Source of the DNA: Candidatus Saccharibacteria bacterium CG_4_10_14_0_2_um_filter_52_9
GTDB lineage: Bacteria > Patescibacteriota > Saccharimonadia > Saccharimonadales > UBA4665
Assembly (NCBI GenBank): GCA_002792275.1
Contig: PFOA01000041.1
Coordinates: 1 to 34,773 of the forward strand
DNA: 34,773 nt
Direction of reading: 5' to 3'
Shown: in pieces, positions 10,878 to 32,386 of the stretch
Position numbering within the stretch: position 1 is the first letter of the stretch
Layout: the number at the start of each line of letters is the position of its first letter
Made by a program: the position numbers and the translations under genes
The notes under the pieces: model-generated
Seen by the model: the letters and a program-made list of their open reading frames with translations, nothing else
Told to the model about the DNA's origin: nothing
Databases searched by the model: none

Positions 10878-12169
10878 AACAGCTCCTCGAGTTTGGCGGC
10901 GATCTGTTCGGCCAGAGTCTGGGCATCCGGGGCTTCAACCATAACACGAGCCAGTGGTTCGGTACCCGATGGCCGAATCAGTAAGCGGCCATTGTCTCCC
11001 AATTGATTAACTTGTTCAGTAATGAAGGCCTGCACTTCTGGCGACGCCAGACGCGACTTGTCGGTCAGCTTAATATTTACCAGTGCCTGGGGCAGGATCG
11101 GTATGTCATCAAACCACTGAGCCAGGCTGTGTCCCGAGGCGGCCACAGCCTTGACGGTTTGAACGGCGGCCAGCATGCCATCACCGGTGGCTAACAGATC
11201 GGGCAGGATTATGTGTCCGGCCTGCTCGCCGCCCAGATGATAGCCGGTTTTACCGAGTTCTTCCAGTACGTAGCGGTCGCCGACATCGGAACGTTCCACT
11301 TCTACACCATGGTCGCGCAGGGCATTCTCTACCCCCAGATTGGTCATAACGGTTACCACCACACCCTTGAGATTGCCGCAGACTGCCAGGATGTACATGA
11401 TGTGATCGCCAGTAAGTAGGCGGCCTTGGCCATCAATCAACATTACCCGATCGGCGTCACCGTCCAGAGCGATGCCCATATCGAGTTTATCGGCCACTAC
11501 CCTGGCCGCTAAGGCCTTGGTATTGGTGGCTCCACAGCTCTCGTTGATGTTTTGGCCGTCCGGAGCATCGGATAATGACGTTACTGTGGCACCCAGGCGC
11601 GTAAACACCCGCTCGGCCAGGCCGGAACCGGCACCGTTGGCGCTATCAATCGCCAGATTAACACCATCAAGTTTGAGCCCGTCGGCACTTGCCACCAAGA
11701 AGTTTTCATAATCACCGACTAATTGGTCGTTATCGTCTGCCAGCCCGCCGTCGCGCTCGGGGCAGCCATCGACAATTAACTTGTTAAGGGTGGCCTCGGT
11801 GGCATCATTTAATTTACCTCCTTTGGCAGTAAACACCTTAACGCCGTTGTACTGGCGCGGATTGTGGCTGGCGGTCACCATAACGCCGACTACGAATTCA
11901 TCGCCCTGACGAGTCAGATAAGCTAAACCGGGGGTTGGCAGAACGCCGGCGAATGTCACATGAACGCCGGCCTTGTTGAGCCCTTCGGTAAGAGCTTTTA
12001 TCAGTCCGGCCGAGGATTCCCGCGGGTCACAACCCATAACTACGCGCTGACCGGGCTCGGCAAAATGTGTGCCCACGGCCATGCCGATGCGCACCGCCCC
12101 GTCATGATCCAGCGGATAGTCTCCGGCCAGGCCGCGAACACCATCGGTACCGAATAAATCTCTACTCAT
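10874..12169 (-). CDS. glmM: Phosphoglucosamine mutase (alpha-D-phosphohexomutase family)
   Basis: GVMVTASHNPRQYNGVK (active-site Ser), ALDGDADRV (Mg site), GEQAGH. The ATG overlaps the aclA stop (ATGA). Confidence 0.85.
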   Translation of the reverse strand: MSRDLFGTDGVRGLAGDYPLDHDGAVRIGMAVGTHFAEPGQRVVMGCDPRESSAGLIKALTEGLNKAGVHVTFAGVLPTPGLAYLTRQGDEFVVGVMVTASHNPRQYNGVKVFTAKGGKLNDATEATLNKLIVDGCPERDGGLADDNDQLVGDYENFLVASADGLKLDGVNLAIDSANGAGSGLAERVFTRLGATVTSLSDAPDGQNINESCGATNTKALAARVVADKLDMGIALDGDADRVMLIDGQGRLLTGDHIMYILAVCGNLKGVVVTVMTNLGVENALRDHGVEVERSDVGDRYVLEELGKTGYHLGGEQAGHIILPDLLATGDGMLAAVQTVKAVAASGHSLAQWFDDIPILPQALVNIKLTDKSRLASPEVQAFITEQVNQLGDNGRLLIRPSGTEPLARVMVEAPDAQTLAEQIAAKLEELL

Positions 12170-13950
12170 GAAGGTATATAGGTGATGTCGTCTTCGCCCA
12201 GGCGCAACAACCCCTCATCGTGGCGGCGCTGATCCAGGTAATGAGCCATTAAACCGGCTGACCGGCTCAATATAAAGATAGCGTTAAAAAATTCTATGTC
12301 GACCAGTTCACGAAGTTTATCCGGGCTGTAGTCCAGCTCTGACTCTAGTATATCGAGCAGCATGGCGGCGATAGTTCCATCGACATTGAGGATCAGGTTA
12401 GCCTTTTTAGAGGTTGTAACTGCTTCGACTCCCTGGGCAAATTTTAGATAGCGGTCACCGTTACTATTGTTAGAAAACTGCTCTGTTAAGGCCTTGACCC
12501 GGGGGTCGGGCGTGTCAATCCGGTATTTTTTATGTCCGATGCCGGGAATGATGCCGCCATTGGCGGTGAACCCGGCTACGAAGGCTTTTGGCTCGGTGTC
12601 ACTGCCTGCGCCTTCCAGCCAGGCGTCGGCGGCGGCGTTAACAGCGCCGCCAAACCGCGGACCGATGGTCAGTAGGCCGGCCGTTAAACTGGAGGCCAGA
12701 TCCTTACCGGCCCGGGCGGCTACTATGGTATTCACGGCTCCCGAAACGTAAGGACCGTGATCCGCTAGCAAGCGTAGGATATAATCACTGAATTCGATGA
12801 CTTTTGGTGAGGTAATCTGCTGTCCGAGCAGTAAGGAGATGTCCAGTCCGGCCAGACTATTCTCATTTACAACGCTCAACAACTCTTTGCCTAACAGGTG
12901 CACGCCGCCGTTAATATCACCTGAAATACGACTGACAATCATAGCTTTACTCCTTTGTTTAATTGGCCGATGTGGTTTGGCCTGATGGCTACCGGTTTCG
13001 GCCTGGGCTGATAAATCGGTAGCCAGTTCACCGAATACATCCATTACCTTGGCGCCGGCTGTCCGCAAAGCCTCCTTTTTGGCTTGGGCACTCTCGCTTT
13101 GGTTAGCGGCCATGGCTTTAGCATGTCCAAATTGCGGCGGCTGATCGAATAACCCGGCGACGGTTCCGGCTATATAGGCGATGACCGGCTTAGTGACCTT
13201 GCCGCTCTTCATGAGGTCGGCTAGGATATACTCGTCGTCGCCGCCCAGTTCGCCAAAGTAGACAATCTGCCTGGTTCGCTGATCGCTTTCGGCCAGCAGA
13301 AAGGCCTGGGCAGGTGTGGTGATCGGATTGCGATCGCCGCCGAGCGCCAGCGCAAAAGAAACCCCCAAGCCGGCCCCGGTAACAGTGTGTATCAGCTCGT
13401 TCACCATGCCGCCCGAGGTAGAGATTACCGCCGTGTCGCCGCCAGAGAAGATATTGGCGGCCACCAGTTGCGGATATTGCGTGCCGCCGATGGCGCCAAG
13501 TTTCATGACCCCAGGAACCAGCAACCCAACCGACGCCGGCCCGGCCACAAGCACATCGTGTTGCTCGGCCAAGGCCGCAACCTGCAGGGCGTGAACCTCG
13601 GGAACCTGCTCGGCAAAGATATTGGCGACCTGTAAATTAGGCAGTAGTTCAAACGTTTCTGTCATGCTGGCCAGCACACGCCGCGCCGACTGTACGTTTA
13701 ATAGACCGGTGGCTTGTTGGCGCAGTTGTTCCGGTACTTTGGCAAGTTTGGCGTAGACCGGCACCATAATTTCATCATGCCCCCAAAAAAACCGCTCCTG
13801 TTTACGGCCAGCGCTGACAATGGCCACTAAATTGGGTGCGCTATGACCCAGACAATAATTGTAATCGAGCATCGACTGGATGATCCCCGGATGCGACCCT
13901 AAACTTATAATGACCGGTTCCAGGTTTTGCAGATCCAGCTCTTTACTCAT
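12166..13950 (-). CDS. aclA: ATP-citrate lyase alpha (large) subunit: CoA-binding, CoA-ligase and citrate-synthase-like domains
   Basis: FWGHDEIMVPVY, QFGHAKA (phospho-His loop), LLADHGPYVSGAVNTIVAARAGKDL, GIGHKKYR, TTSKKANLILNVDG, HYLDQRR. Collinear with the C-terminal two thirds of ACLY. ATG 13950 has GGAGG upstream and overlaps the aclB stop. Confidence 0.9.
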   Translation of the reverse strand: MSKELDLQNLEPVIISLGSHPGIIQSMLDYNYCLGHSAPNLVAIVSAGRKQERFFWGHDEIMVPVYAKLAKVPEQLRQQATGLLNVQSARRVLASMTETFELLPNLQVANIFAEQVPEVHALQVAALAEQHDVLVAGPASVGLLVPGVMKLGAIGGTQYPQLVAANIFSGGDTAVISTSGGMVNELIHTVTGAGLGVSFALALGGDRNPITTPAQAFLLAESDQRTRQIVYFGELGGDDEYILADLMKSGKVTKPVIAYIAGTVAGLFDQPPQFGHAKAMAANQSESAQAKKEALRTAGAKVMDVFGELATDLSAQAETGSHQAKPHRPIKQRSKAMIVSRISGDINGGVHLLGKELLSVVNENSLAGLDISLLLGQQITSPKVIEFSDYILRLLADHGPYVSGAVNTIVAARAGKDLASSLTAGLLTIGPRFGGAVNAAADAWLEGAGSDTEPKAFVAGFTANGGIIPGIGHKKYRIDTPDPRVKALTEQFSNNSNGDRYLKFAQGVEAVTTSKKANLILNVDGTIAAMLLDILESELDYSPDKLRELVDIEFFNAIFILSRSAGLMAHYLDQRRHDEGLLRLGEDDITYIPS

Positions 13951-15133
13951 GATCCACCTCCTGCAGAGCCTCTTTAACGGCATCCGTTAACGGTACGTCC
14001 GGATCATGCACAGCACCTAGCAGACCGTGTTTAGCTAAGGCGACTTCCATGTTGGCCAAGCCGGCTTCCTGGTTTGGGCCGCCGCGGCGGACAAAAATTT
14101 TGACACCGGCGGCCTGTAATTTATCGGCGACTTCGTCGATGGCCTTGATGACACCGGCGAAGGTTTTATTAACATCTGTAAAATTAGCCACCGCGCCACC
14201 GATAAACAGCACCTTGCGAGAGGCCTGGGACTTCAGAAGTAACTGCAGTAACTGCTTGGTGTATATATAGGTTTCCTCGGCGTTGGGATTGCCGCTGTAC
14301 TCACCATAGTTGGCAAGTTGTTTGCCGTAGCCCTGGTTGTAAACTTCGTCGGCCACCACCACGCTGGCACCGCCGCCGGACAACAGTAAGAATATGCTGC
14401 CATTCGGTTCCAGCACGCTAAGTTTAAGCGAGGCCGGAGAATTGTCATCCAGCTCTTTAACAACCGCCTCTTCGGGAGTTTGATCGTGTCCGCTGTGGCT
14501 ACGGAAATCATCTATCTGCCAACTATCCACAAAAAAGGCCGCCGCATCATCGACCTCAACGGCCGAGTCCAGGATTTGTAAGCCATTCTCACTGGCCAAA
14601 TAAGGGTTGATCTCCATAAAGGCAAAGTAATTATCCAGGAACGCCTGGGTCAGCTGTTGCAATTGCCGGCTGTTAATAGCCGTTTTCTGGGCTAACTGTT
14701 CCCAATCAGTCGCATCATTGACGCGAACTTGCTGAAGGCTGCTGGCTTGCTTTTCGATATCAACCCCGCCGCTGGCCGAAAACTGGAGCATTACTCCCAG
14801 CCGATCAGACATAAAACTTATATAACGCTCGTCGCCCGGAGCATGTTCGGCCATCGGTTCTACAATCAGCCACTGATAGCCTTTAGACTTCAGCTGTTCG
14901 GCGGCCTCGACCAGATCGGCGGCTTTGACATTGAGCGCCACCAGCCCCTGATTAAAGCGACCTTTAACACCTTGATCCACTTTTAGGGCGAAAGTGCCGC
15001 CTGCCTCAATGGCTGACTGTAGTTGGGCAGGTAAGGGCGCCTCGATATCGACAGACCAGCCCTTGTAAGGCAGTTCGAGGGCTTTAGAAATAATGGTTTT
15101 GGCCCGGTATTCTGACAACTTCTGGCGCGGCAT
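13943..15133 (-). CDS. aclB: ATP-citrate lyase beta (small) subunit: ATP-grasp and citrate-binding domains
   Basis: SLKLSVLEPNGSIFLLLSGGGASVVVAD, LANYGEYSGNP, IGGAVANFTDV, FVRRGGPNQEAGL. Collinear with the ACLY N-terminus. ATG 15133 (MPRQKLSEY...) is preferred over 15145 because an extended -10 box lies 7 nt upstream. Confidence 0.9.
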   Translation of the reverse strand: MPRQKLSEYRAKTIISKALELPYKGWSVDIEAPLPAQLQSAIEAGGTFALKVDQGVKGRFNQGLVALNVKAADLVEAAEQLKSKGYQWLIVEPMAEHAPGDERYISFMSDRLGVMLQFSASGGVDIEKQASSLQQVRVNDATDWEQLAQKTAINSRQLQQLTQAFLDNYFAFMEINPYLASENGLQILDSAVEVDDAAAFFVDSWQIDDFRSHSGHDQTPEEAVVKELDDNSPASLKLSVLEPNGSIFLLLSGGGASVVVADEVYNQGYGKQLANYGEYSGNPNAEETYIYTKQLLQLLLKSQASRKVLFIGGAVANFTDVNKTFAGVIKAIDEVADKLQAAGVKIFVRRGGPNQEAGLANMEVALAKHGLLGAVHDPDVPLTDAVKEALQEVDHE

Positions 15134-15140
15134 ATCTACC

Positions 15141-15149
15141 ATCATACCA
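15141..15149 (-). promoter_or_regulatory. Extended -10 (TGgTATGAT), 7 nt upstream of the aclB ATG
   Basis: Minus strand reads TGgTATGAT-ggtagat-ATG with no SD. Confidence 0.4.
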
Positions 15150-27255: not shown

Positions 27256-27783
27256 TCATCTGTTAGGCGGGAATCCTACAAAGTTAAAATGCCACCATTC
27301 ATACGGCCAGACAACAAAGCCGGCTTCCTTCATAAACTCTTTGAGGAGTTTGCGATTCATCTGCTGTTGCCAGCTCAAGCCTTCGGCGCCATCGTGGGCT
27401 TCGGAGCCGAAACGATCAAAACCGGTGGCCATGTCTAAGAGATTGCCATTCTTATCGGCTAGTGTTACATCAACCGCCAAGCCCTTGGGGTGCATGGATT
27501 TATCCGGATCCAGTACATAGTTATCTGGCCCTTTATGGAAGGCTACCAATTTATTATGTGCCTCAACTGGTCGGTGGGCATCCCACACAACCAGAAAAAG
27601 TCCCGGTTTGATCATTAGCTGAGCCGCATAGGCCAAGGCATAGGCCGCCGGCTCTAAGAGCTTAGCCACAGTGTCTTCGCCGGTGTATAGAACCTCGCCC
27701 GTAAAGTTATCGGACGTGGCATATTTGAGGTCGACAATAGTGCCTTCGGGCAGTAAAGGCGTGAGCTCTCGAAGTTGTTTCAT
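27256..27783 (-). CDS. D-alanyl-D-alanine dipeptidase (VanX/DdpX, peptidase M15D)
   Basis: SMHPKGLAVDVTL (SxHxxGxAxD zinc motif) and YEWWHFNF (catalytic Glu and His ligand). Confidence 0.8.
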   Translation of the reverse strand: MKQLRELTPLLPEGTIVDLKYATSDNFTGEVLYTGEDTVAKLLEPAAYALAYAAQLMIKPGLFLVVWDAHRPVEAHNKLVAFHKGPDNYVLDPDKSMHPKGLAVDVTLADKNGNLLDMATGFDRFGSEAHDGAEGLSWQQQMNRKLLKEFMKEAGFVVWPYEWWHFNFVGFPPNR

Positions 27784-27786
27784 GGT

Positions 27787-28962
27787 TCAGAACTGTTGAA
27801 GATAGTTGGTGCTGAAGGTGGTCGTTAAGGCCTGGCGCTGGGTGTGGCGTTCTTTGGCGTAGCCTACTAGCTTTTGGACTAACTCGACGTTGCTGACGCC
27901 GGCGCGGTTCCAGTTGTGGGCGTAGAGGTCGCCGGGCAAAGGGTTAATCTCGTTAAAGTAGATGCGCTTGGTTTTTTCATCGATCAGCATGTCTACCCGG
28001 GCAACGCCGCTACAGCCAAAGGCTTTGTAGATCGCCACACCGATAGCCTCGGCCCTGACGTAGACTTCCTCTGGTACTTCGGCTGGGATCTTGCTGTAGC
28101 CCTGGGCGCCTTTGGAACCCTTAGACCCGCCCTTGCCTTTGCCCTTTTTGCCGCCCTGCAGATACTTGGTGTCAAAATCAAAGAAATCCTCGGGCTTGGT
28201 CATTGGCTGTTCCAGCATGGCCGGTTTTGGCCGGTCGTTACCCATAATCGGCAAGGTGACTTCAATCAAGTTAGGAATGGCCTCCTCGACTATTACGCGG
28301 TCGTCATAGTGGGCGGCGACTTCCAGGCCGTGGCGCAGTTCGGTGTCGTTCCTGACCTGGCTGATACCGATGCTCGAGCCCAGGTGAGCCGGCTTAACAA
28401 ATAATGGGTAGCCTAGGGTTTTCACGATGTTTTTCACAGCTTCGCCGGGCTGGCGCTCCAGCTCGGCTTTGGTGAAGGTCATAAACTTGGAAACCGGAAT
28501 GTCATTGGCGGTAGCGACTTCTTTGGCCAGGACTTTGTCCATGGCAATGGCGCTGGCGCTCAGTCCACAACCCACATAAGGAATGCCGGCCATATCCAGC
28601 AGACCCATCAGGGCGCCATCTTCGCCGTAAGTACCGTGCATGGCCGGAAAAGCGATGTCAATCCGGCGCGTTTGCTTGCGGCCGGCAATGCCGCTGGCCT
28701 TAACCAGGGTCATGCCACCGTCGAACTGAACGCTAGTGGGCTGGGTGCGATGCAGGTAATCCTGGATACCGCCCGAGGTAAACAGTTTGATGTCCTTGAG
28801 TTTTTCGTCCCAGTACCAGGCACCGTCTTTGGCTATATAGACTGCCTCTACCCGGTATTTTTTAGTTAATTCCAGGGGCTTAATAATGCTGGCCAGCGCC
28901 GTTACGATCGATACGTCATGCTCGGCCGATCGTCCGCCGAAAATTACTGCGATTGTTTCCAT
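27787..28962 (-). CDS. ddl: D-alanine--D-alanine ligase with a Gly/Lys-rich insertion in the omega-loop
   Basis: IAVIFGGRSAEHDVS N-terminus, ATP-grasp blocks (YPLFVKPAHLGSSIGIS, FFDFDTKY, EINPLPG). 391 aa. Confidence 0.92.
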   Translation of the reverse strand: METIAVIFGGRSAEHDVSIVTALASIIKPLELTKKYRVEAVYIAKDGAWYWDEKLKDIKLFTSGGIQDYLHRTQPTSVQFDGGMTLVKASGIAGRKQTRRIDIAFPAMHGTYGEDGALMGLLDMAGIPYVGCGLSASAIAMDKVLAKEVATANDIPVSKFMTFTKAELERQPGEAVKNIVKTLGYPLFVKPAHLGSSIGISQVRNDTELRHGLEVAAHYDDRVIVEEAIPNLIEVTLPIMGNDRPKPAMLEQPMTKPEDFFDFDTKYLQGGKKGKGKGGSKGSKGAQGYSKIPAEVPEEVYVRAEAIGVAIYKAFGCSGVARVDMLIDEKTKRIYFNEINPLPGDLYAHNWNRAGVSNVELVQKLVGYAKERHTQRQALTTTFSTNYLQQF

Positions 28963-29066
28963 GCAATTAGTATATGCAATTCATTACTACAATTACAAGA
29001 ATCACAAGTCGCTCGTGCTTGCATTTACCCCTTAATGCCCCCTATGATAGTAAGACTTTAAAGGTA

Positions 29067-29480
29067 ATGAATATGAAGAACGGGCAACCGGAAGTAGTTA
29101 TGTACGAAGGCCTAGTCGTCAGCGAGCCCATGGCGGCTGCGAGGCTGGTTGCTCAGGAATTCAAATTTGTCACGCTTGGATTCGATTACCCGCATCATGC
29201 CGCCAAAGCACTCAGCACCGACACCGACGCGGTTGTCACCATCCTCAATCCGTTTGATCTTAATGCCCCCGAGATAAGCCCTGACATTGTGGACTTTTTA
29301 GAAAAGGTGCATGAGTTAAAAGTCCCCGTGGCTTACCTCTCCGACCACCTTGATGCAGAAGATCAAAGTAGGCCCGAGAACGGTGATATTGTTATACCTT
29401 GGGAAAGTCAATTGAATGTGGGGCTTAGCCTTCGTCCCTGGCTGGGCAATATTGCCAGCAAGGCCCGCGCCCGGTTTTAG
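29067..29480 (+). CDS. Hypothetical cytoplasmic protein
   Basis: ATG 29067/29073 is preferred over the track start at 28974. No family recognised. Convergent with, and overlapping, the Mur-ligase stop. Confidence 0.5.
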   Translation: MNMKNGQPEVVMYEGLVVSEPMAAARLVAQEFKFVTLGFDYPHHAAKALSTDTDAVVTILNPFDLNAPEISPDIVDFLEKVHELKVPVAYLSDHLDAEDQSRPENGDIVIPWESQLNVGLSLRPWLGNIASKARARF

Positions 29481-30916
29481 GCGTAGTTGTCGGTCCAGTC
29501 GTTTTGCATGACCACCAGATCGCCGCTAGCCACGAAATGTTGCAGATTGGTGTAGAACTCCAGGGGATTGGTTTCGATCTGTAATTCGCCCTTGAACCTG
29601 CCTGCTTTCAGGCCTCTTTGGATAAAGTCGGTAACGGAATTTTGCATCAACACCACCAGATCGGGTTTGGCTGAGGCGATCAGCTTGCCGGCCTTGAGGT
29701 GGACGGCCTCGGTTTCTTCGCCTTGGTCTACCAGGCCGGGGGTAACGTAGATTTTGCGCTTGGCCTCCACGGCTTTGAGTAGCTCGGTGCCGGCACGCAG
29801 GCCCTCCAGGTTGCCGTTGTAGGTATCATCCACAATCCAGGCACCGCCCAGCTGGTAGGGCTGCATACGATGCTCAAAAGGCTCGGTTTTGGCAATGCCG
29901 GCCTTAACCTGGTCGTGGGTCAGCCCAAGTTCAATAGCCAGAGCGGCCGCCAGAGCCAGAAAACCAACCTGATGCTTGCCCACCAGACCGCTATGCAGTT
30001 TAAGCGAGTCTTTGCCCTTTTTCATAACAAAGCCGGTGCCATCGAGGCCGGTTTTGATGCGGGAAATCTTCCAGCCCAAGGCCGTTTTGCCGCTAAAGCG
30101 CTGGTAAGACTTTTTAATAAAGGGCTGGCTGTCCGGCGACTCGTCATTCACGTAAACCTGTTTGCCCTTGAGCTTGCCGGCAACCGAAAAAATATCCTGG
30201 CCGGCGGCCTGCAGGGTTTTGTAGCGATCCAGGTGAGCCGGCACCACACCGGTGATAACGGCGTGGGTGGGATGGGTCAGCCGGGTAAAGCGAGCCACGT
30301 CGCCGGGAGCGCCTTCGCCGTATTCAATAATCAACACATCTTCTTTGCCGGTCAGATTCTTGGCAAAGTTGGCATGGCTGATGCTGACATTTTTATTGGC
30401 CGGCGTGGCGGCAACGTCTAGCCCCTCGCCCAGCACGGTGTTCAGGATTTCTTTCATGGTGGTTTTGCCATAACTGCCGGCCACGGCGATTTTAACAGCG
30501 CCGTGCGCGGCAAAAACCCGCTCCGCGGCGGCAATTTGCTGTTGTTCGGCCGGCGCGCTGATAAACCAGCGGCCCAAAACCAGTGGTATAACCGCCAGAT
30601 GCGCCCAGATAATCGGGTAGCTCAGCATAAGTGCCGCTCCAAACAGCACACCGCCGGTCAAATCGCTGTACAAGCCCAGGTAAATCAGCCAGACTCCGGC
30701 CGCAATCTGCAGTAAGATGCCCAGGCGCAAAGCCAGCAGTAATAAACGGGCGGCCTTGGTTCTGTCTAGATCGCGGCGCTGGTTAACGGCCGTGAAGTTT
30801 TTGGTGCGCCAGACCCACTTTAGGTAAGGCTTTACCTGGTACTCGGTACTCTGCAACATATACACCAGCACTGTGGGGTAGCTCAGCAGGTAGATGCTGG
30901 CCAGCTCGTGGATCAT
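29477..30916 (-). CDS. Mur-ligase-family protein (MurF-like central and C-terminal domains) with an N-terminal multi-TM domain in place of the UDP-binding domain
   Basis: About 125 N-terminal residues with 3-4 hydrophobic helices. Then P-loop AVAGSYGKTTMKE and DDTYNGNLEG (the DxYNANP-type motif of MurF). The ATG overlaps the hydrolase stop (ATGA). Confidence 0.75.
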   Translation of the reverse strand: MIHELASIYLLSYPTVLVYMLQSTEYQVKPYLKWVWRTKNFTAVNQRRDLDRTKAARLLLLALRLGILLQIAAGVWLIYLGLYSDLTGGVLFGAALMLSYPIIWAHLAVIPLVLGRWFISAPAEQQQIAAAERVFAAHGAVKIAVAGSYGKTTMKEILNTVLGEGLDVAATPANKNVSISHANFAKNLTGKEDVLIIEYGEGAPGDVARFTRLTHPTHAVITGVVPAHLDRYKTLQAAGQDIFSVAGKLKGKQVYVNDESPDSQPFIKKSYQRFSGKTALGWKISRIKTGLDGTGFVMKKGKDSLKLHSGLVGKHQVGFLALAAALAIELGLTHDQVKAGIAKTEPFEHRMQPYQLGGAWIVDDTYNGNLEGLRAGTELLKAVEAKRKIYVTPGLVDQGEETEAVHLKAGKLIASAKPDLVVLMQNSVTDFIQRGLKAGRFKGELQIETNPLEFYTNLQHFVASGDLVVMQNDWTDNYA

Positions 30917-31665
30917 GCCAGAAACTCCTTTATCAAAGCAAATACTTTTTCGGGTTGGTCCAAATGAACGAAGTGTTCGGAGTCGGCAATAATTTCCAGG
31001 CGCGAATTTTTAATAAGTTTGTGGTAAATCTGGCCGTCGCTGACCGGAACGGCTTTATCGTCGGCGGCGTAGATCAACAACGTCGGAACAGTAATGGTGG
31101 CGGCAGAGCGCTGTACATCCTGGCGCACAGTCTTTTTAAAGGTTTCCTGAAGCTGAGGAGCAACCAACATGTCCGAACCGGCTACGCCGTATAGGCTTTT
31201 GCGCAGACCCTGCCGGTAGCGCTCGGGCATCCACAGTGTGGCCACACTGCCGGTCTTGGCCAACACTTTCAGCACAGCTCGTTTAACCTTACTGCCGGTG
31301 CGCACACCCGAAGCCGCCAACAACACCAGTTTTTGCGGCTCAAGAGCCTGCAAGGCAATCGCCCGTACCGCCAGCGCTCCGCCGTTGCTGTGACCAACCA
31401 CTGCATAGGGCTGTCCAAGTTCCAATTTAGCCAAAAACGCGGCCACAAATTGCCCGTAATTATCAAGATTCCAGACCTCTTTAGGCGCCTGGGTAGCGCC
31501 AAAGCCAGGCAGATCCAGCGCGACAACCTGATGTTGCTTAGCCAGCTGGCCGGCCAGGTCTTTCAGCCCCTTAGCGCTGTCGCCCCAGCCGTGCAGTAAT
31601 AAGACCAATTTGCCCTTACCCTGAAGTTCGTAACTGGTCAGGAGATCATCAACAACAATTTGCAT
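30913..31665 (-). CDS. Alpha/beta-fold hydrolase
   Basis: LLLHGWGDS (oxyanion region), GHSNGG nucleophile elbow, C-terminal ...SEHFVHLDQPEKV. ATG 31665 is preferred because the track ORF extension runs through tRNA-Leu. Confidence 0.8.
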   Translation of the reverse strand: MQIVVDDLLTSYELQGKGKLVLLLHGWGDSAKGLKDLAGQLAKQHQVVALDLPGFGATQAPKEVWNLDNYGQFVAAFLAKLELGQPYAVVGHSNGGALAVRAIALQALEPQKLVLLAASGVRTGSKVKRAVLKVLAKTGSVATLWMPERYRQGLRKSLYGVAGSDMLVAPQLQETFKKTVRQDVQRSAATITVPTLLIYAADDKAVPVSDGQIYHKLIKNSRLEIIADSEHFVHLDQPEKVFALIKEFLA

Positions 31666-31697
31666 GTGCTTATTATAACTGAGTAAGGGACAAATTT

Positions 31698-31784
31698 TGG
31701 TGCGCGGGGTGGGAATCGAACCCACACGCCCTTTCGGGCACGACATTTTAAGTGTCGCTTGGCTACCAGTTACAACACCCGCGC
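31698..31784 (-). tRNA. tRNA-Leu (anticodon UAA), class II with a long variable arm, CCA encoded
   Basis: Folded by hand. Acceptor GCGCGGG/CCCGCGC, anticodon stem CGACA/TGTCG with loop CTTAAAA, variable arm TGCCCGAAAGGGCGT, T-arm GTGGG-TTCGATT-CCCAC, 3' ACCA. Confidence 0.9.
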
Positions 31785-32261
31785 TAAATGAACCTTCTTA
31801 TTTTTACCACGATGAGTGGGCTGAAGGCTATGGCAATTTGGGCAAAGTATGCGTAAATTTTCCAATCGGTTATCCTGTTTGTTGCCATTTATATGGTCAA
31901 GCTCGACCGGTATACGACCATCGACAGACAACTTTGCCCAGCCGCACAGTTCGCAAATGGGTGACTTCAGCCCTTTTGCAAACAATTTATGCTTGAGCTT
32001 ATAGCTTTGCACGCTACTGCCTGCAACCAACAGTTTCTCCAAAGGTACCGTTGATTTGAGCTGATACTTTGTTCCCGCATTCCAACCCTTACCCGTAAAA
32101 TGCTCGGTGCTCAATGCCAGTTCGTTGATACGACGTTTGACTTGGTCATAGTTGCCGCCCGCCGGTATCAGCCTTAGTTTCATCAGCACGCTACGATAAC
32201 TCTTTAGCATTGCAACGGCTTCGATCAGTTCACTATCCGTCCAGGAGCGCTTTGCACACAT
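31770..32261 (-). CDS. HNH endonuclease (homing-endonuclease-like)
   Basis: CELCGW...ELDHINGNKQDNRLENLRILCPNCHS HNH motif. The N-terminal WTDSELIEAV...GGNYDQVKRRINEL module is typical of free-standing HNH genes. AT-richer than its neighbours. Confidence 0.8.
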   Translation of the reverse strand: MCAKRSWTDSELIEAVAMLKSYRSVLMKLRLIPAGGNYDQVKRRINELALSTEHFTGKGWNAGTKYQLKSTVPLEKLLVAGSSVQSYKLKHKLFAKGLKSPICELCGWAKLSVDGRIPVELDHINGNKQDNRLENLRILCPNCHSLQPTHRGKNKKVHLARVL

Positions 32262-32312: not shown

Positions 32313-32386
32313 TGGAGGCACCTACGGGAATTGCACCCGTGTACGCGGTTTTGCAGACCGCTGCGTAACTACTCCGCCAAGGCGCC
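32313..32386 (-). tRNA. tRNA-Cys (anticodon GCA), CCA encoded, with an atypical T-loop
   Basis: Acceptor GGCGCCT/AGGTGCC, anticodon stem GCGGT/ACCGC with loop CTGCAAA, T-arm ACGGG-TGCAATT-CCCGT, 3' TCCA. Confidence 0.8.

Follow-up and report, generated by a model that had tools for sequence, protein, structure and literature searches.

The Mur ligases MurC to MurF are standard soluble, three-domain cytoplasmic enzymes that act on precursors linked to uridine diphosphate (UDP), and MurT has the Mur ligase fold without the UDP-binding domain 1. Natural Mur fusions, including MurE-MurF, are architectural variants thought to favour the channelling of precursors to the membrane steps (PMC10214165). 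In the survey of these fusions 'transmembrane' does not occur, and the ten mentions of 'membrane' include no reference to a membrane-inserted Mur ligase (PMC10214165). No description of a membrane-bound or domain-1-less MurF in the candidate phyla radiation (CPR), Saccharibacteria or TM7 was found in the literature searched. Here we analysed a Mur ligase gene on contig PFOA01000041.1 (assembly GCA_002792275.1) of Candidatus Saccharibacteria bacterium CG_4_10_14_0_2_um_filter_52_9; the whole stretch of 34,773 nucleotides is called the window. The gene product is an architectural variant as well but, unlike the fusions, which are complete soluble three-domain enzymes, it carries a conserved, predicted cytosolic segment and a membrane hairpin where canonical MurF has domain 1. 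We lean slightly towards reading it as a Patescibacteria-type MurF that would add the D-Ala-D-Ala made by the neighbouring D-alanine--D-alanine ligase (Ddl) to UDP-N-acetylmuramic acid (UDP-MurNAc)-tripeptide, probably as a housekeeping enzyme tethered to the membrane near MraY.

We use the name 'type A' for this architecture, which consists of an N-terminal module (N-module) and two transmembrane (TM) helices, the P-loop GSYGKT, the motif TPGLVxQG and a terminal QNDWxDxY, together with a hydrolase gene upstream and ddl downstream. The window ligase and its neighbourhood show every one of these defining features. The gene and its parts are as follows.

29477..30916, minus strand: type A membrane-anchored MurF-like ligase, 479 residues plus stop codon, recognized from the list of open reading frames (ORFs) and from Pfam, NCBIfam and structure matches.
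30758..30916, minus strand: predicted cytosolic N-segment, residues 1-53, with three short helices, the motif Y-(M/L)-L-Q-x-x-E-Y, R47 and T53.
30563..30757, minus strand: membrane hairpin, residues 54-118, with TM1 at ~54-83, an outside loop at 84-88 and TM2 at ~89-118.
30506..30562, minus strand: basic helix, residues 119-137, which extends TM2 into the ligase domain.
29882..30505, minus strand: central ATP-binding Mur ligase domain (PF08245), residues 138-345, with the P-loop G147-S-Y-G-K-T152, N176, E198 and H228.
29480..29881, minus strand: C-terminal Mur ligase domain (PF02875), residues 346-479, with H349-R350 and DDTYNGN at 363-369.

The catalytic part of the protein is of MurF ancestry. 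Both motifs from which the initial annotation had deduced a MurF-like ATPase domain and C-terminal domain, AVAGSYGKTTMKE (residues 144-156) and DDTYNGNLEG (residues 363-372), are present, and the family searches agree with that assignment. Pfam places Mur_ligase_M at residues 145-326 (7e-18) and Mur_ligase_C at 349-469, the latter at 27.4 bits, just under its gathering score of 28.4. Among the NCBIfam models, murF TIGR01143 scored highest (163.9 bits), followed by murC (47.9) and murD (36.4), and a profile built from 42 close relatives ranked solved MurF structures first, with E. coli 1GG4 at E = 7e-31. For conservation counts, we used 110 full-length cluster representatives, 27-64% identical to the query. 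The P-loop, N176, E198, H228, R350, D363, D364, Y366, N367 and H406 are 97-100% conserved among them.

These matches leave out domain 1. The TIGR01143 match spans only profile positions 65-375 of 418, and the profile alignment pairs only query residues 137-422 with residues 97-388 of E. coli MurF. Foldseek, run with an AlphaFold2 model of the ligase (mean predicted local distance difference test score, pLDDT, 88.3; predicted template modelling score, pTM, 0.78), matched MurF structures over only ~360 columns. Because the profile and Foldseek alignments cover the later MurF domains only, the ligase has no counterpart of MurF domain 1, as had been claimed from the sequence. The modelled chain contains only helices through residue 137, long membrane helices among them, and adopts the normal Mur ligase fold thereafter; judged by this model, the N-terminus is no degenerate form of domain 1. 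The N-module has no Pfam family match even at E <= 10.

The initial annotation had described the first ~125 residues as 3-4 hydrophobic helices. A hydrophobic helical region is indeed present, but three short cytosolic helices leading into a two-helix membrane hairpin describe it better. AlphaFold2 places helices at residues 2-9, 13-23, 28-37, 54-83, 89-107 and 110-137, the last of which is a single helix joining TM2 to the ligase domain. Hydropathy analysis gave two strong hydrophobic stretches at ~54-84 and ~89-120, with values >1.4 over windows 53-86 and 80-121, and the hydrophobic segments sit at equivalent positions in nearly all of the representatives. The mean number of Lys plus Arg residues per sequence among the 110 family members is 7.7 before TM1, 0.2 in the loop and 6.0 after TM2 (counted over residues 116-140). 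The loop is thus poor in basic residues and its flanks are basic, which therefore indicates an N-in/C-in hairpin with the catalytic domains predicted to be cytoplasmic. Four residues of the N-module are conserved to a degree comparable to the catalytic residues (Q22, 99%; Y26, 96%; R47, 87%; T53, 99%).

The hydrophobic N-terminus would not exist as protein if translation started downstream and the long gene call were an artefact, an explanation suggested by database entries of ~350 residues for some relatives, which lack the N-terminus. We considered these entries as candidates for membrane-less type A proteins and rejected them, since they are mostly alternative start calls of full-length genes: the short calls share 90%-identity clusters with calls of 474-485 residues, in the clearest case on the same contig. 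An AAGGAG lies 5' of the ligase ATG, with its GGAG core ending 9 nt ahead of it, and the ATG overlaps the hydrolase stop codon as ATGA, so that the coupling to the alpha/beta hydrolase noted initially is confirmed in the sequence. The internal start codons fall inside TM2 or the P-loop region. The N-terminus is conserved at the protein level down to 27% overall identity and is homologous between type A and a second MurF-like type, type B (see below). The Shine-Dalgarno motif, the ATGA overlap, this conservation and the badly placed internal starts together support a start at M1, and we consider an artefact barely conceivable.

Type A is a common form of MurF in the CPR and not a one-off. Thousands of relatives of the ligase are present in the protein database, where the usual labels are MurF or 'Mur ligase family protein'. 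The 120 closest relatives are 67-74% identical over their full length, measure 460-486 residues (477-486 in 116 of them) and all belong to Saccharimonadia. A search of the GTDB species representatives found relatives in 270 species; the top-ranking 80 of these are 54-72% identical and align nearly all from residue 1-10 to 478-479, one locus being cut at residue 18. These 80 are Saccharibacteria or unclassified Patescibacteria, except for one metagenome-assembled genome labelled Bacillota. A HMMER scan of 1.84 billion representatives of 50%-identity clusters yielded 527 clusters at E <= 1e-30. Among the 150 that rank highest (27-64% identical), nearly all alignments start at query residue ~1-20, and the members share the layout of Y-(M/L)-L-Q-x-x-E-Y, one to three hydrophobic segments at ~45-125 and the P-loop GSYGKT at ~140. 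A search with one distant member (P0233) brought up relatives from CPR2, Pacebacteria, Magasanikbacteria, Gribaldobacteria and Doudnabacteria, and a cluster look-up adds Gottesmanbacteria and Nomurabacteria to the carriers. Many of the distant relatives are named MurF by NCBI or JGI.

The survey of the architecture and its neighbours thus found it widely in the CPR, and found it together with the hydrolase and ddl. We examined the neighbourhoods of 88 loci, 82 from Saccharimonadales and six from distant CPR. The genes that adjoin the ligase in the window are listed here.

30913..31665, minus strand: alpha/beta-fold serine hydrolase, 250 residues from M28 (Pfam Abhydrolase_1/6, Hydrolase_4).
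31698..31784, minus strand: tRNA-Leu(UAA), found by ARAGORN, the upstream boundary of the hydrolase-ligase-ddl unit.
27787..28962, minus strand: Ddl, 391 residues (Pfam Dala_Dala_lig_N and _C).
27256..27783, minus strand: DdpX/VanX-type D-Ala-D-Ala dipeptidase (Pfam Peptidase_M15, 1e-29), a lineage-variable neighbour.

In 87/88 loci the alpha/beta hydrolase gene immediately precedes type A on the same strand, the exception being the locus cut at the gene, and ddl lies downstream on the same strand in all 88. The conserved unit therefore comprises the hydrolase, the type A ligase and Ddl, and the hydrolase is an obligatory, co-translated partner of type A. Farther downstream, leuS is found in 61 of the 88 loci. 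The gene order in distant CPR is hydrolase, ligase, (alanine racemase) and Ddl, with the racemase between ligase and ddl or within ~5 kb (L085, L086, L088), and the hydrolase partnership extends to loci of CPR2, Magasanikbacteria and Doudnabacteria. The initial annotation had suggested that the ligase could form a module with the hydrolase, ddl, a VanX-like gene and a class IV aminotransferase. The last three are located as claimed, with ddl 514 nt downstream, and membership holds for the hydrolase and ddl; the VanX-type dipeptidase (near the ligase in 6/88 loci) and the aminotransferase (nearby in 15/88, with varying position and strand) were rejected as members and are local additions. Apart from this unit, several distant CPR genomes encode MurA (EPSP_synthase) fused to an N-terminal HTH_3 DNA-binding domain (L084 1-1282; L086 1-829; L089 2885-4402), ~5-7 kb upstream of the hydrolase-MurF-Ddl operon.

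A second MurF-like gene, 'type B', lies just upstream of the hydrolase in six Saccharimonadales loci. Type B genes include L077 7599-9227, L090 10001-11644 and L091 10001-11626. The type B product of ~542 residues is 24% identical to type A. Like type A, it is MurF-derived, lacks domain 1 and has an N-terminal membrane module, which shares homology with the type A module (hhalign probability 98.4%, E = 5.6e-15). It differs from type A in a central-domain insertion, a C-terminal extension and the presence of GxMxELG and KGSQ as in E. coli MurF. Type B forms a large family, seen only in Saccharimonadia, and occupies the same locus upstream of leuS in 10/10 informative loci, the number on which the claim of a fixed locus rests; a metagenome scan with type B gave 5 loci. 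The order B-hydrolase-A-ddl-leuS occurs in seven loci. The order in three further loci is B-(reversed short ddl)-leuS or B-leuS; both type A and the hydrolase are missing there, so that type B is uncoupled from the hydrolase when alone. Among the 65 type A loci whose upstream sequence is long enough, 59 lack type B, as does the window. From this gene order, types A and B are apparently interchangeable at one locus.

A membrane-less type B also exists (424 residues, L095 8007-9281; Pfam M at 30-234 and C from 257), and its layout matches a protein of the cultured Southlakia epibionticum, SEML1_0599, which has 426 residues, M at 29-239 and C from 259, and is encoded two genes from leuS with a tRNA-Phe 85 bp upstream (PMC10633639). 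SEML1_0599 is the only MurF among the six Mur-ligase-fold proteins of Southlakia and is essential by transposon sequencing (PMC10633639). The division and cell wall (dcw) cluster of this organism reads rsmH-...-PBP2-mraY-ftsW-murG, without murE or murF; a separate MurT/GatD pair is present, and no Ddl Pfam domain is listed for the genome (PMC10633639). Its MurE, SEML1_0049, measures ~400 residues with Mur_ligase_M starting at residue 22, and MurC and MurD keep domain 1 (PMC10633639); from these boundaries, the Southlakia MurE appears to lack domain 1. By its annotated Pfam/ECOD layout, the Southlakia MurF has no domain 1, and the tRNA-Phe 85 bp upstream leaves no room for a membrane module, yet it is essential, which means that the essential function can do without either feature in this clade. 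This weakens the argument that a ligase without domain 1 has no UDP-linked substrate.

Type A resembles canonical MurF more than any other described enzyme: the best sequence and fold matches are to MurF, the P-loop, the Mg-binding Glu and His, the HR pair and DDxYNxN are shared, and both are linked to ddl. It differs in having the conserved cytosolic segment and the membrane hairpin instead of domain 1, in carrying TPGLVxQG and the terminal QNDWxDxY instead of GDMxELG and KGSR, in scoring under the curated cut-off, in its obligatory alpha/beta hydrolase partner and in lying outside any dcw cluster. Since domain 1 and the curated score fail and two motifs are replaced, we file type A as a distinct variant and not as plain MurF. 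MurT, like type A, activates a carboxylate, in its case the stem-peptide carboxylate on a membrane-bound substrate. Unlike type A, it ends in the C-terminal domain PF08353, has the glutaminase GatD as its partner and is not membrane-integral; the window ligase has no match to PF08353, its scores with MurT models are negligible, and the neighbours of type A are the hydrolase and ddl, not GatD.

In the mechanism that we propose for such a tethered MurF, the retained central and C-terminal domains would face the cytoplasm and run the ATP-dependent acyl-phosphate chemistry, while the basic helical segment (with Q22, Y26, R47 and T53) and the membrane hairpin would replace the UDP-binding domain 1. 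The adjacent Ddl would supply D-Ala-D-Ala, which the ligase would add to the MurNAc-tripeptide, with the acceptor remaining UDP-MurNAc-tripeptide. The membrane module would keep the active site at the inner membrane face, so that the pentapeptide could be made beside MraY and handed off to it, and the conserved juxtamembrane residues may assume part of the contact that domain 1 makes with the acceptor. A housekeeping role is suggested by the operon shared with Ddl and alanine racemase, by a catalytic core that is intact, by the single MurF-like gene of small genomes where genes were counted and by the apparent interchangeability of types A and B. Each of ten ABY1-class genomes has exactly one match to K01929 (murF) (PMC11809585 Table S6). 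Neither dcw genes nor a three-domain MurF was found in the flanks of 83 loci, ~1.3 Mb in total, by tblastn with E. coli MurC-F, MraY, MurG, FtsW, FtsI and RsmH. From the ABY1 count, the single MurF of Southlakia and the prevalence of type A in the CPR, the source genome probably contains no other murF, an outcome that the initial annotation had named as refuting its proposal.

Several observations weigh against a plain MurF function. The TIGR01143 score is far under the curated cut-off of 288.6 bits. TPGLVDQG (392-399) and the terminal QNDWTDNY (471-478) stand where the canonical GDMxELG and KGSR are expected; in a motif census, 117/120 close and 114/117 distant type A sequences carried TPGLVxQG and QNDW, and GDMxELG and KGSR/KGSQ are kept in E. 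coli MurF and type B. The column of the carbamylated lysine of MurD and MurE (the lysine of AKAKGEIF in MurF) is not conserved in type A in an alignment that is uncertain here: it holds I242 in the ligase and K, T or V in other type A proteins, and residues 231-245 (~30182-30226) are poorly conserved. No UDP-binding residue or surface is identified in type A, and nothing in the canonical MurF reaction calls for the invariant hydrolase partner. The seven loci with both types show that some genomes hold A and B together, hinting at incomplete redundancy, and a second MurF may lie elsewhere in the source genome, the searches having covered the locus flanks.

Some of these observations would be explained if type A were an accessory ligase, which together with the hydrolase adds another dipeptide or depsipeptide, recycles or remodels stem peptides or acts on another envelope polymer, with the true MurF encoded elsewhere. 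The diverged C-terminal motifs and the low hidden Markov model score fit this explanation, as do the retention of both types in seven loci, the VanX-like dipeptidase close by in the window and the serine hydrolase, which accompanies type A in nearly every locus but which the three B-only loci lack. However, tiny genomes throughout the CPR have kept type A and its link with ddl and alr, VanX is seldom linked, type B has a fixed place and is missing from most type A loci, and the ABY1 genomes have a single K01929 match each and the flanking sequence no three-domain MurF. We therefore regard an accessory ligase as quite improbable. The initial annotation had likewise pictured a non-canonical ligation or remodelling module; a side module beside a canonical dcw murF is unlikely, given that type A is the common CPR form, that one K01929 match is found per ABY1 genome and that Southlakia has a single, essential MurF. 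Its observation of the altered architecture was borne out, and its interpretation is only partly supported.

Another explanation retains the ligation of D-Ala-D-Ala and changes the acceptor. MraY would act first, moving MurNAc-tripeptide onto undecaprenyl phosphate; at the inner leaflet, the membrane-embedded ligase would subsequently finish the pentapeptide on lipid I or lipid II, with Q22, Y26, R47 and T53 binding the pyrophosphate-sugar head group. The complete loss of domain 1 is consistent with a lipid-linked acceptor, as is the conservation of the N-module, which is not that of a generic anchor, and in the model the continuous helix from TM2 into the ligase should keep the acceptor side near the membrane. 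There is also precedent in MurT, a protein of the Mur ligase fold that is named as part of a 'lipid II isoglutaminyl synthase', and in the Southlakia MurE, which likewise appears to be without domain 1. On the other hand, CPR genomes retain the full UDP-precursor pathway and MraY, and a plain tether near MraY accounts for the anchor equally well. Membrane insertion is moreover not required for essential MurF function in this clade, because the layout lacking both the membrane module and domain 1 is that of the sole, essential MurF of Southlakia. A lipid-linked acceptor is a serious alternative for the window ligase but seems the less likely one, and we consider it unlikely that throughout Patescibacteria a membrane-integral, domain-1-less MurF and its invariant serine hydrolase partner act on lipid-linked MurNAc-tripeptide, with MraY preceding MurF. 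The reading of type A as a tethered MurF with a UDP-linked acceptor is the one that we retain.

The neighbouring proteins were characterized as well. In the hydrolase, S93, D203, H231 and G26-W27 are 100% conserved and H25 94% conserved among 50 orthologues, and the closest solved structures are generic esterases and C-C hydrolases. The annotated ORF has 277 codons, the first 27 of which (31665-31746) overlap the tRNA-Leu gene and encode GRVGSIPTPRT, a typical read-through of a tRNA T-arm. Because of this overlap, and in keeping with orthologues of 247-263 residues, the hydrolase probably begins at M28 (31665). Ddl scored 305.7 bits with NCBIfam NF002528 (cut-off 262) and has a Gly/Lys-rich insertion, GGKKGKGKGGSKGSKGAQGYSK, at residues ~266-290; a similar one, GGKKGKNHAKAGGKLGSQGAQGYSR, is found in the L077 orthologue. 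The VanX-type dipeptidase scored 137.7 bits with NCBIfam PRK10178, under the cut-off of 176.

The gap between the ligase and ddl (28963-29476) is 514 nt long here, compared with ~30-60 nt in most related loci, and contains a promoter-like site at 28998-28969 (minus strand) just upstream of ddl. Rfam gave no match in the gap. An ORF of 168 residues on the opposite strand (28974-29480, plus strand) has no relative in the 88 loci and no Pfam or PHROG match, and is therefore probably spurious. A phage-type HNH endonuclease gene (31770-32261, minus strand; PHROG 10822, 1.7e-42) lies between the tRNA-Leu and a tRNA-Cys (32313-32386), a short way upstream of the operon; as its relatives occur near the operon in only 4/88 loci, it is probably a mobile insertion. 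Elsewhere in the window, two adjoining genes of the ATP-citrate lyase type occupy 12166-15145 (minus strand), one with Citrate_bind and ATP-grasp domains and the other with coenzyme A (CoA)-ligase and citrate synthase C-terminal domains.

Taken together, the whole superphylum appears to use a MurF without the UDP-binding domain, which is mostly built into the membrane and coupled to a hydrolase. Read modestly, domain 1 of MurF is dispensable, and type A would represent a natural case in which the final cytoplasmic reaction is tethered to the membrane steps, with a bearing on the long-discussed idea of a 'Mur complex' and of precursor channelling. Since the curated MurF models miss type A, which the Prokaryotic Genome Annotation Pipeline (PGAP) often labels 'Mur ligase family protein', calls of pathway completeness in CPR genomes may be affected. 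The hydrolase-MurF-Ddl triad is a testable target in genetically tractable Saccharibacteria. If the acceptor were lipid-linked, the textbook order of the peptidoglycan pathway would be changed in a very large bacterial radiation, and if a domain-1-less MurE proved general, MurE might also use a lipid-linked substrate.

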